From: a virus
Strand: one strand, 5' to 3'
Virus record (IMG/VR): IMGVR_UViG_3300022934_000003
Length of the DNA stretch: 64,000 bases
Position numbers and translations under genes: made by a program. This document shows, piece after piece, positions 606 to 24,592 of this stretch. The notes below the pieces were generated by a model, which ran no database searches, was not told the DNA's origin, and saw nothing but the letters and a program-made list of their open reading frames with translations. Position 1 is the first letter of the stretch, and every line of letters starts with the position of its first letter.

Positions 606-639
606 AAAAAAAGAGGGAGCTTAATTGCTCCCTTTTTTT
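606..639. terminator. bidirectional rho-independent terminator
   Basis: A7-GAGGGAGC-ttaatt-GCTCCC-T7 between convergent genes. Confidence 0.85.
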
Positions 640-829
640 ATCTAATGTGAGGATCTATATGGTCGTCATTATAAACTTCATCTCCAAGCGCCCTGATTTT
701 TCTGGCTAAACCATTATATCTAAATTGCCAAGTATCAGCTCTTTCTTTTTCAGCTTCATACTTTCCTTTCCAATCAGTTTTTTTAAATTTTTCTGCTTGA
801 AGTTTCCACCAGTTTTTTAAACTTGCCAT
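638..829 (-). CDS. hypothetical protein
   Basis: Start likely MASLK at 829, with AGGAG SD upstream. Confidence 0.6.
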   Translation of the reverse strand: MASLKNWWKLQAEKFKKTDWKGKYEAEKERADTWQFRYNGLARKIRALGDEVYNDDHIDPHIR

Positions 830-840
830 ATTATACTCCT

Positions 841-1134
841 TTAAACACAACCTGTGGGTTTAGGCAAACCACCATATTTAGTAATTGGTTTCATGGGACC
901 TGTCATCCACATTTTGAATACTTCTTTTTTATCCATACCAATTGCCTTTGCAAAATTACGAATAGCAGGAACAGCTGATGTATCCTCATAGATTTCTCTT
1001 GCTTTCATAATATGCTCAATTTTTTCATCAGTTAGTTCATATCCATCTTCTTCTGCCATTGCATTCATAACATCGACAGACCATTCTGACATATCTAACA
1101 AATAACCGTCACCATCTCTTTCTGGTAAACTCAT
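841..1134 (-). CDS. dsrC: DsrC/TusE/DsvC-family sulfur relay protein (single C-terminal Cys)
   Basis: N-terminal D-x-DGYL..W motif and C-terminal GPMKPITKYGGLPKPTGCV; penultimate Cys present, second Cys absent. Confidence 0.9.
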   Translation of the reverse strand: MSLPERDGDGYLLDMSEWSVDVMNAMAEEDGYELTDEKIEHIMKAREIYEDTSAVPAIRNFAKAIGMDKKEVFKMWMTGPMKPITKYGGLPKPTGCV

Positions 1135-1166
1135 AATATACTCCTAGGTATTTAATTAAAAAATAT

Positions 1167-1457
1167 TTATACTTCTTCAGTTGGTTTAAATTCTATTAAC
1201 ATATTTTTAAGATATGGATCACAACCTTTATCTTCTAATCTTGTCATCAACCACATCTCAAATGAGTCTTTGTCCTCGAATGTTCTTTTAAAGTAGAAGG
1301 TCTCGTTGGGTAACTCTCTTTCGAAAGATACCACAACAGGACCAGCATATACATCTTTGATAAACATTACAGCTACAACGACATATGCAATTACCCCCAT
1401 TAGCAATGCCGCTGCCCAACCTGGACAATTCTTTTCGTTACAGCTTGAACCTATCAT
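1167..1457 (-). CDS. hypothetical membrane-anchored protein
   Basis: SD AGGAG; one transmembrane segment near the N-terminus. Confidence 0.55.
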   Translation of the reverse strand: MIGSSCNEKNCPGWAAALLMGVIAYVVVAVMFIKDVYAGPVVVSFERELPNETFYFKRTFEDKDSFEMWLMTRLEDKGCDPYLKNMLIEFKPTEEV

Positions 1458-1471
1458 AGATTTCTCCTATA

Positions 1472-1756
1472 TTACTTCTCTTGTACAGGGAAGTTGTAGT
1501 ATGGTGATGCATAACCATAATTTTTATATGGATTATGCTGATAAGATACAACGTAATCTGGATCGTCAACTTCGTTAATCATATTTACAAATTCAGTTGG
1601 ATACCAACGTGGATCCATCATTGAATATGGATTAAACGAAAAGATACCGTTATCTTCTACATAACCATAGTTGTTGTTATTAAAAGGGCCAAAATCAAAT
1701 GCTGAAGCAGTTGAAACGGCTGTTGCCATAATTGTTGCTAATGCTAGCTTTTTCAT
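1472..1756 (-). CDS. secreted Asn/Tyr/Pro/Gly-rich protein, sulfur globule protein (Sgp)-like
   Basis: Sec signal peptide MKKLALATIMATAVSTASA|F; low-complexity NNNNYGY and PY-rich C-terminus; DNGIFSFNPY..MDPRWY block recalled from SUP05-type proteins annotated as sulfur globule proteins. Confidence 0.6.
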   Translation of the reverse strand: MKKLALATIMATAVSTASAFDFGPFNNNNYGYVEDNGIFSFNPYSMMDPRWYPTEFVNMINEVDDPDYVVSYQHNPYKNYGYASPYYNFPVQEK

Positions 1757-1955
1757 ATCTATTCTCCTATTAAGAATTAAATGATGCTCTTAAAGAGCGG
1801 GTTATAATAATTACGCTACTAGAGCGATTTTTTTACATGTTAGATAATCTAACTATGTTTGTTACTTTTATTTATAATACTAAATTACTATATTATAATA
1901 TTTTAATATTAATTATTTTAATAATAACTATCTATTTTTTAAATAGTTAAATTAT

Positions 1956-3780: not shown

Positions 3781-3857
3781 TGGTGGGCCCACTAGGATTT
3801 GAACCTAGGACCAATGGATTATGAGTCCACTGCTCTAACCAACTGAGCTATAGGCCC
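3781..3857 (-). tRNA. tRNA with CAT anticodon, probably Ile2 (lysidine type) rather than Met
   Basis: GGGCCTA acceptor stem, AGCTCAGTTGGTTAGAGC D arm, CTCATAA loop, GGTTCAAATCC T arm, encoded CCA; resembles ileX-type tRNAs. Confidence 0.9.
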
Positions 3858-5066: not shown

Positions 5067-5142
5067 TGGACTTGGTGACAGGACTCGAACCTGCATAGAA
5101 CGGATTTGCAATCCGATGCATAACCAATTCTGCCACACCAAG
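5067..5142 (-). tRNA. tRNA-Cys(GCA)
   Basis: CTTGGTG/CACCAAG acceptor stem, U discriminator plus CCA, TTGCAAA anticodon loop, GGTTCGAGTCC. Confidence 0.95.
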
Positions 5143-5146
5143 AATT

Positions 5147-5224
5147 TGGCCTCGCCGGGAGGACTCGAACCTCCAACCTACAGCTTAGAAGGCTGTTGCT
5201 TCTATCCGCTTGAGCTACGGCGAG
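5147..5224 (-). tRNA. tRNA-Arg(TCT)
   Basis: CTCGCCG/CGGCGAG acceptor stem, CTTCTAA loop, GGTTCGAGTCC, CCA end. Confidence 0.95.
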
Positions 5225-11993: not shown

Positions 11994-12515
11994 ATGGCTA
12001 AGCGTAACTACGTTAATAATAAAGACCTACTCGCAGCAATGGTAGATTATAAAGCAAGTTGCCAAGAAGCAGAAGAAGCTGGTGACAAAAAACCACGCGT
12101 TCCTGATTATATTGGTGAATGCATTTTACAAATTGCTACGAGATTGGCTACTAAACCAAATTTTTCTGGATATTCATATAAAGAAGATATGATTTCAGAC
12201 GGTATTGAAAACTGTTTACTTTACATAAGCAACTTTAATCCAGATAAATCTAATAATCCATTTGCATACTTTACACAAATTATTTGGTATGCATTCTTAA
12301 GACGTATTGCAAAAGAAAAGAAACAAATGTATATTCGTTTCAAATCTTCTCAAGCATTTCTTGCAGCAGGTCAAACATATGAAGGTGATGAAGATTTAAG
12401 TTTACATTTAAATACTGCAGCAGATTATATGAATACATTTATTGAAGATTTTGAAGATAAACTTAATCGTGATAAACAAAAGAAAAAAGAAAAAGAAGAA
12501 GAAAAGAAAAAATGA
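11994..12515 (+). CDS. gp55: late-transcription sigma factor
   Basis: NYVNNKD, PDYIGEC, PNFSGYSYKEDMISDGIENC, NPFAYFTQI. Confidence 0.95.
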   Translation: MAKRNYVNNKDLLAAMVDYKASCQEAEEAGDKKPRVPDYIGECILQIATRLATKPNFSGYSYKEDMISDGIENCLLYISNFNPDKSNNPFAYFTQIIWYAFLRRIAKEKKQMYIRFKSSQAFLAAGQTYEGDEDLSLHLNTAADYMNTFIEDFEDKLNRDKQKKKEKEEEKKK

Positions 12516-12871
12516 GATTTACAAAAGAACACGAATGGATTAAAAAAGAAGGTGACTTATATTTAGTTGGAGTTACTCAACATGCTATTGAATTATTAGG
12601 TGATTTGGTTTATATTGAATTACCAGCACCAGGTGAAGTGTTTGATAAAGATACAGAATGTGCTGTAGTAGAATCTGTTAAAGCAGCTTCAGATGTTTAT
12701 TGTCCAGTATCAGGCCTGGTGACTGAAATTAATGCATCATTAGAAGATACGCCTGAAGCAGTAAGTGATGATTGGACTACATGGATATTTAAATTAGAAA
12801 ATGTAAACGAAGCAGATTTAGAAGATTTTATGGATGAGGAAGCTTATAATAAGTATATCGAGGGATTATAA
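12512..12871 (+). CDS. gcvH: glycine cleavage system H protein (lipoyl carrier)
   Basis: FTKEHEW, GVTQHA..LLGDLVYIELP, VESVKAASDVYCPVSG with lipoyl Lys, MDEEAY. Confidence 0.92.
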   Translation: MRFTKEHEWIKKEGDLYLVGVTQHAIELLGDLVYIELPAPGEVFDKDTECAVVESVKAASDVYCPVSGLVTEINASLEDTPEAVSDDWTTWIFKLENVNEADLEDFMDEEAYNKYIEGL

Positions 12872-23810: not shown

Positions 23811-24252
23811 TAAGTGGGATAAGCGATTTATGAATGTCGCAAGAGAAATCTCTACGTGGAGTAAAGATCCAAGTACTAAAATTGGTGCTATCATTGTTAA
23901 TGATGAAAGACGTATTCTTGCAACTGGTTATAATGGTTTTCCAAAAGGTATTGAAGATACTGATGAAAGACTATATAATAAAGAACAAAAATATACTCGC
24001 GTAATTCATGCAGAAATGAATGCTCTTATGAATGCATTATATAATGGAGTATCAGTTAAAGATTCTACTTTATACGTATGGGGTTTACCAGTTTGTTCTG
24101 AATGTGCAAAGAATGTTATCCAAGCTGGTATTAAAAGAGTTGTAATTCCCGATTATGAAGTTATAGATTTAAGATGGGAAAAAGTTTGGTTAACTAAATC
24201 TCAGCCAATGTTTGAAGAAGCGGGTTTACAAATCTCGTATTTGGAGTTATAA
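23803..24252 (+). CDS. cd: dCMP deaminase
   Basis: [30 protein letters not shown]. Confidence 0.92.
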
Positions 24253-24259
24253 TAGTATT

Positions 24260-24592
24260 ATGAGTTATTTAGTTATAGATAATTGTGTTAAATGTAAGCA
24301 CACTGATTGTGTTGAGGTTTGTCCTGTAGACTGCTTTTATGAAGGACCTGATATGTTAGTAATCAATCCAAGCGAATGTATTGATTGTGGTGTATGTGAA
24401 CCTGAATGTCCTGTTGATGCAATTGTGTTAGAAACAGATTTAAAAGAAGATGAACGTAAGTTATGGACAGAAAGAAATGAAAAGTATTCTGAAATCTGGC
24501 CTAATATTGTAGATAAAAAAGATCCTCCATTTGATTTTGATGAGTGGGAGGGTGTACCTAATAAGTTTGAAAAATTTGTGGAGCCAAAATGA
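24260..24592 (+). CDS. fdxA: 7Fe ferredoxin (FdxA type)
   Basis: [17 protein letters not shown] and [12 protein letters not shown]; start MSYLV at 24260. Confidence 0.92.

Follow-up and report, generated by a model that had tools for sequence, protein, structure and literature searches.

In oxygen-poor seas and at vents, SUP05 bacteria are the drivers of sulfur oxidation and carbon fixation in the dark. Phages of these bacteria carry dsrA and dsrC and are presumed to exploit stored sulfur. To our knowledge, the route of access to globule sulfur is not settled even in Allochromatium vinosum. The viral DNA analysed here (64,000 nucleotides; IMG/VR record IMGVR_UViG_3300022934_000003; hereafter the window) raises the question of whether a phage might also act on the sulfur globule itself. 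It encodes a small exported protein similar in architecture to sulfur globule proteins (Sgps), located two genes upstream of a dsrC/tusE gene in the same minus-strand unit, as an earlier note on this DNA had observed. Our preferred answer, held tentatively and drawn from sequence comparisons, is that the gene is a host-derived auxiliary gene whose product would be a sulfur-globule surface protein of a second Sgp class, perhaps keeping globule formation and turnover running late in infection.

The gene and its transcription unit

By inspection, T4-type topoisomerase, polymerase, clamp-loader and tail-region genes mark the window as part of a T4-like phage. The RNA sequencing runs that hold its sequence are labelled salt-marsh metagenome. 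The locus comprises the following features.

1472-1756, minus strand: 94-residue exported Sgp-like protein, the phage form of the DPRW-core family (intact reading frame and homologues)
1700-1756, minus strand: predicted Sec signal peptide, residues 1-19, with an A-S-A cleavage site (inspection, hydropathy, conservation in the alignment)
1565-1657, minus strand: conserved core, residues 34-64, ending in an amphipathic acidic helix, residues 51-64 (alignments, AlphaFold)
1484-1492, minus strand: F-P-V tail motif, typical of phage copies (count of F[PS][AVT] in the last 30 residues)
1869-1876, minus strand: T4-type late promoter TATAAATA, located 120 nt upstream of the start codon (octamer match)
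1835-1858, minus strand: hairpin or near-palindrome in the leader (leader fold z -2.8)
1167-1457, minus strand: 96-residue gene whose product has a single hydrophobic segment at its N-terminus (accompanies the Sgp-like gene in related phages from salt marshes)
1164-1171, minus strand: second late promoter TATAAATA, 37 nt before dsrC (octamer match)
841-1134, minus strand: DsrC/TusE-family sulfur carrier with the penultimate Cys only, the second Cys position being Thr (PF04358, TIGR03342)
638-829, minus strand: 63-residue reading frame, last gene of the unit (gene call in L001-L006)
614-633, minus strand: intrinsic terminator-like hairpin and T run that close the unit (hairpin search)

The reading frame of the Sgp-like gene is preceded by the ribosome site AGGAGA, and gene calls on 24 public contigs include it. 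The late-promoter octamer upstream and the terminator-like hairpin downstream together delimit a unit of four genes, namely the Sgp-like gene, the 96-residue gene, dsrC/tusE and the 63-residue reading frame. The octamer TATAAATA, which is the established T4 late-promoter consensus, has only nine sites in the whole window. Many other T4-like loci also have it, 43-79 nt ahead of the homologue, compared with a background rate of 0.048 per 200 nt; it is absent from the close salt-marsh relatives. We infer that the Sgp-like gene is expressed late in infection. No counterpart of the leader hairpin is evident upstream of homologues, and Rfam gives no match for it. Contigs from salt-marsh RNA libraries are identical to the window over the Sgp-like gene; two have their ends at 1834 and 1843, and one spans 913-1843. 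They are weak evidence of expression because contigs reveal nothing about strand or level and might stem from carried-over DNA.

The product of the 96-residue gene looks membrane-anchored and has an N-terminal C-x4-C. Most salt-marsh-clade loci have this gene beside the Sgp-like gene or close to it, and no family or atlas match to its product was found. The carrier encoded at 841-1134 matches PF04358 (E 1e-21) and scores above the TIGR03342 cut-off. One-Cys forms of DsrC are common in phages (Kieft et al., 10.1101/2020.08.24.253096).

Several other elements of the window were noted. Two perfect TTGACA-17-TATAAT promoters (3187-3159 and 2452-2424, minus strand) drive small upstream genes, and three tRNA genes are located at 3784-3857, 5070-5142 and 5150-5224. 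A gene for the lipoyl carrier H of glycine cleavage (12512-12871, plus strand) lies behind a sigma-factor-like gene, and in the related locus L033 a GcvH gene directly follows dsrC. A phage-encoded 4Fe-4S dicluster ferredoxin of the FdxA type (DUF3470) is found at 24248-24592 on the plus strand.

A conserved core outside PF17228

The cleavable signal peptide claimed in the earlier note is borne out by inspection. The N-terminus consists of MKK and a hydrophobic stretch (Kyte-Doolittle 1.5-1.8), A-S-A occupies residues 17-19, and the lipobox Cys is absent, all of which indicates a signal of the Sec/SPase I type. The n/h/c pattern and the A-x-A site are conserved across the family by inspection of the alignment. 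The mature part has 75 residues, including 11 Asn, 11 Tyr, 8 Pro, 7 Phe and 4 Gly, with no Cys, just three Lys or Arg and a net charge of -7. This region had been described as N/Y/P/G-rich and of low complexity. The richness in Asn, Tyr and Pro stands, and extends to Phe, but Gly reaches only 5%, clear repeats are absent, and the protein is less low-complexity (sequence entropy 3.76 bits) than PF17228-type proteins (3.25 bits).

No Pfam, NCBIfam or PHROG model matches the 94-residue protein, the core matches no solved structure, and single-sequence scans of viral and genome contigs gave nothing; alignment-based searches were needed to find homologues. Feature matches in the ESM Atlas all score below 0.9, and a PF17228 cluster at rank 15 (score 0.81) is a lead only. 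Profile searches define a family whose members combine a signal peptide with a core some 30 residues long, NG-[IF]-F-x-x-N-x-Y-x-x-x-DPRW-Y-x-x-E-x-x-N-x-x-x-E-x-D. AlphaFold predicts the helix at residues 51-64 as the sole structure past the signal (local pLDDT about 78), the remainder being of low confidence (overall pLDDT 59, pTM 0.39). The helix has a hydrophobic moment of 0.42, which 3.6% of shuffles reach or exceed, and it is amphipathic in the query and in six homologues.

Close named homologues in genomes belong to the SUP05 group, including Thioglobus, Ruthia, Vesicomyosocius and mussel symbionts, and others come from metagenome-assembled genomes (MAGs) with vaguer labels. The profile search thus found relatives in the three genera where the earlier note had proposed to look, and the DNGIF.FNPY..MDPRWY block that it had linked to SUP05 proteins does match proteins of that group. 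The Thioglobaceae homologues Rmag_0508 (A1AWF5), A5CWS6 and A0A6N0HNX2 match the family profile with E of about 1e-28; UniRef labels them 'Sulfur globule protein CV1', and NCBI labels them hypothetical. The CV1 names appear to be automatic, unvalidated database labels.

Membership of the characterised Sgp family, which had also been suggested, is contradicted by direct comparison. At the PF17228 cut-off of 26.7 bits, the query, 39 aligned members and the host copies give no match. Alignment of the DPRW core with the SgpA/B core (GD-F-x-F-x-M-S-G type) by hhalign yields a probability of 0.27% and E 0.23, and in the full-length profile match to PF17228-type proteins it is mostly the signal peptide and the N-terminal part that align. 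Because the architecture and distribution are Sgp-like and the core is unrelated, the protein is best classed as Sgp-like but outside PF17228, with a putative role at the globule.

The family resembles SgpA and SgpB (CV1 and CV2) of A. vinosum in its size of about 10-14 kDa, its Sec signal, its mostly disordered, aromatic and Pro-rich mature chain, and its lack of Cys. Host homologues further share GYG repeats, a Pro/Ala tail and a distribution among rDsr oxidisers. In contrast, the central core differs, and the phage form is acidic and Gly-poor. Tested Sgps contain Gly-rich repeats (Gly 17-32%), whereas phage copies lack these repeats (Gly 3-9%). Rmag_0508-type proteins have the same core as phage copies, but are longer, carry Gly/Asn repeats and lack the FP tail. 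SgpC and SgpD of A. vinosum provide a precedent for unrelated exported Pro-rich sequences in one globule coat (PMC10386293). Outside Chromatiaceae SgpD is nearly absent, and it contains long helices; the likeness of both proteins to the present family is judged from descriptions.

PF17228 matches none of 101 Thioglobaceae genomes, compared with 54 of 401 control genomes of the class. Yet the SUP05 bacterium T. autotrophicus stores globules in its periplasm, and four putative sgp genes are reported for it (Shah et al. 2019, PMC6509183). The argument that the DPRW-core family must be the coat, given that PF17228 is absent in Thioglobaceae, was rejected because a second candidate family exists. 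This is a multi-copy exported family of about 170 residues in Thioglobaceae (L174-L183), with GGSNWGPF and KGQADAYA repeats, located beside icd (isocitrate dehydrogenase) and lacking a Pfam or NCBIfam match. SP60_00735, which has 171 residues, neighbours the icd locus tag and is among the most abundant proteins, is probably a member. This makes the icd-linked family a strong contender for the principal globule coat in SUP05 bacteria.

Sulfur oxidisers and phages that carry the family

Host copies have the architecture of Sgps, with a signal, an A-F-W start, a G/N/W linker, GYG repeats and a Pro/Ala tail, and they often occur in tandem arrays of two to four paralogues. Some host paralogues are short and have no repeats (86 residues; L104 and L107). 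In three MAG loci (L104, L105 and L107), a short core-bearing paralogue lies directly behind a gene for a repeat-rich exported protein of about 170 residues. A more distant branch in other Gammaproteobacteria carries N-x-Y-D-x-W-DPRYW-M-EEM or ND-W-P-x-W-TPMYW-M-EEM, and some of its proteins bear the NCBI name 'sulfur globule protein'. The hits P0021 and P0027 were discarded as repeat artefacts.

As a proxy for sulfur-storing, rDsr-type sulfur oxidisers among the sampled genomes, we used dsrA. The 101 Thioglobaceae genomes divide into 61 with both the family and dsrA, 6 with the family only, 7 with dsrA only and 27 with neither. The family is thus present in 61 of 68 dsrA-positive genomes, and dsrA in 61 of 67 family-bearing ones. 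The 27 genomes with neither fall mostly into one block, which is probably a single lineage without sulfur oxidation, so the correlation within Thioglobaceae counts as roughly one event. The test outside Thioglobaceae is more independent. A core search of 400 Gammaproteobacteria matched 22 genomes, 21 of them dsrA-positive. All 18 core-bearing genomes outside Thioglobaceae have dsrA, compared with 125 of 401 overall (31%; Fisher p 2e-10, uncorrected for relatedness). Inspection by eye confirmed each of these 18: all show the signal, the core and G/Y/P repeats, and most end in a Pro/Ala tail. PF17228 also matches in about 12 of them, in some cases weakly and possibly to the same gene. The earlier note had named occurrence beyond sulfur-storing bacteria and their phages as grounds for abandoning its proposal; a wider distribution was looked for, and in the sampled genomes homologues are found only in rDsr sulfur oxidisers and phages.

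Co-occurrence with dsrA would be explained equally well by a periplasmic sulfur-oxidation protein outside the coat, such as a scaffold or partner of sulfide or thiosulfate enzymes, or of polysulfide transfer. The conserved and sequence-specific core and helix, which are not pure repeats, suit such a role, as does the flavocytochrome c sulfide dehydrogenase gene that adjoins a family gene in two genomes (Pfam-confirmed in L148, judged by likeness in L152). We nevertheless regard this role as rather unlikely: host copies share their N-terminal and GYG/Pro-Ala architecture with SgpA/B and are multi-copy, and the SUP05 and phage forms have neither Cys nor a metal motif.

A bacterial gene order of dsrC-like gene, lepB and family gene (L038, L039, L042-L044, L054 and L088) was rejected as support because the DsrC-like protein lacks the C-terminal Cys (it ends RRKGGY), the orientation is divergent, and only 2 of 64 genome loci have this order. 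These loci do contain a DsrC paralogue without the C-terminal Cys, divergent from lepB, and some symbiont genomes have lepB ahead of the family gene.

Judged from neighbouring genes, the family is carried by T4-like, T5-like and podovirus-like phages, and IMG/VR contains 21 loci with a family gene. The sulfur-auxiliary setting proposed from the window recurs in other phages. The family gene is directly upstream of tusA-dsrC (L223), of tusA (L224) and of two dsrA copies (L021 and L215), and many other phage loci have dsrC within about 0.5-6 kb, in varying gene order. DsrC is also encoded by 9 of 17 IMG/VR records, most of which are 3-31% complete. T5-like contigs have no dsrC, and an SgpA/B-like gene is immediately upstream of their family gene; its product matches PF17228 with E 0.003, below the cut-off, and a PF17228-positive protein with E 6e-7. 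A contig filed under a 'Methanosarcinales archaeon' MAG (L102) is a T5-like phage contig, and is likely mis-binned.

A podovirus-like record that is 83% complete has the family gene and neither dsrC nor dsrA. Perhaps, then, a captured host gene serves a purpose unrelated to sulfur, such as superinfection exclusion, lysis timing, or as an envelope or virion accessory, jobs that small exported late proteins often perform in T4-like phages. The phage-specific tail would fit. This explanation is improbable, because the gene is repeatedly found beside tusA, dsrC, dsrA or the SgpA/B-like gene across gene orders and phage types, and the host core is kept almost unchanged in phage copies.

Phage copies are shorter than host copies (median 92 versus 118 residues) and have a distinct E-F-T-N core variant. 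Within the last 30 residues, F[PS][AVT] occurs in 13 of 15 copies from phages but in 0 of 98 from Thioglobaceae, and the core is duplicated in a few phage copies (L021). In a core tree of 39 columns, phage copies fall among Thioglobaceae-type sequences, apart from other Gammaproteobacteria (support 100/99), and form one side of a branch with support 70/87. Phage copies thus appear to derive from the host group, although 39 columns do not prove the direction of transfer; a single capture followed by phage-to-phage spread might have occurred, and the tree neither shows nor rejects it. The shortness, low Gly content, FP tail, core variant and position on one side of a branch suggest that phage copies are a specialised form.

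Other genes were observed in these cassettes. In L021 (6001-11425) and L215, the core-duplicated family gene is followed by two tandem full-length dsrA genes, iscU, iscA-like genes and a two-Cys dsrC. A small exported two-Cys gene adjoins the sulfur cassette in T4-like phages of the OMZ/vent type (L015:6591, L019:6585, L021:11538, L023:7139, L223:5134 and L224:4716), and amtB and a porin-like gene are often near it.

Possible roles at the globule

In A. vinosum, sgpB plus sgpC mutants form no globules and oxidise neither sulfide nor thiosulfate, SgpC serves to expand globules, and the bacterium can do without SgpD, whose loss changes neither globule formation nor degradation (PMC10386293). Oxidation of stored sulfur depends on Dsr proteins (PMC3368242). 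Because tested Sgps form or expand globules and Dsr proteins oxidise the stored sulfur, a structural surface protein supplied late is the best-supported reading. The phage protein is presumably structural and not catalytic, since it has no Cys and is mostly disordered. Late in infection, it would be exported by Sec to the periplasm, where its aromatic, amphipathic core might sit at the S0/water interface and the protein could top up the globule coat during the shutdown of host gene expression. Globules might then keep forming and turning over as many small globules with a large surface, and sulfur flow to TusA, DsrC and rDsrAB, and thus energy production, would be maintained.

The earlier note favoured the release of stored sulfur. 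On a version of this view, the trimmed phage protein would bind the globule through its core, weaken or fragment the coat, and speed release of sulfur to the Dsr pathway. Loss of the cohesive Gly repeats makes this plausible, the specialised phage form is consistent with it, and the late-promoter octamer and linkage to dsrA and dsrC fit a late draw-down of reserves. However, the proposed direction runs against the genetics described above, both for the Sgps needed to form or expand globules and for SgpD; the Dsr dependence of stored-sulfur oxidation and the repeat-less short host paralogues also argue against it. We consider it unlikely.

For a coat role, including topping-up by a late structural protein, we count the co-distribution with dsrA, the Sgp architecture, the tandem paralogues, the three MAG loci shared with the exported protein of about 170 residues, the adjoining sulfide dehydrogenase gene in two genomes, the placement in sulfur cassettes, the SgpA/B-like gene of T5-like contigs, the sgpB plus sgpC mutants, and the globules of SUP05 bacteria that lack PF17228. 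Counted against it are the core unrelated to SgpA/B, the missing Gly repeats, names that are only labels, the rival coat family of about 170 residues, a Thioglobaceae correlation owed mostly to a single lineage, and the podovirus-like record without dsr genes. In the literature searched, no member of the DPRW-core family has been localised or mutated. Taking topping-up and loosening of the coat together, a putative association with the globule is likely. It is possible, if somewhat doubtful, that the DPRW/WTPMYW core defines an undescribed class of coat protein, whose repeat-less form has been spread by phages of at least three types and changes globule size or turnover.

Phage sulfur auxiliary genes described previously (dsrA, dsrC/tusE, soxC and soxD, together with soxYZ; Kieft et al. 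2021, PMC8190135 / 10.1101/2020.08.24.253096) occur in the same phage groups and cassettes. Those genes encode enzymes or carriers, whereas the Sgp-like protein would be structural and periplasmic. The text of the preprint of that survey (10.1101/2020.08.24.253096) does not contain 'sgp', and the openly accessible papers searched contain no report of a phage or viral globule protein or sgp gene. What appears to be new here is a phage sulfur auxiliary gene of Sgp-like type outside PF17228, with a putative function. If the assignment is correct, this would be the first viral gene that acts on the coat of a bacterial storage inclusion and not on an enzymatic reaction in sulfur oxidation. Targeting of the globule surface by such a small gene would offer a direct, testable handle on access to globule sulfur. 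The gene would also extend the phage sulfur auxiliary genes by a structural class, one that HMM-based screens miss because no Pfam, NCBIfam or PHROG model covers it, and its core motif would flag possible globule proteins in hosts without PF17228 matches. The SgpA/B-like exported gene of the T5-like contigs (L009:5641-5973; also in L008, L010 and L011) is possibly a phage-borne Sgp of the canonical type.
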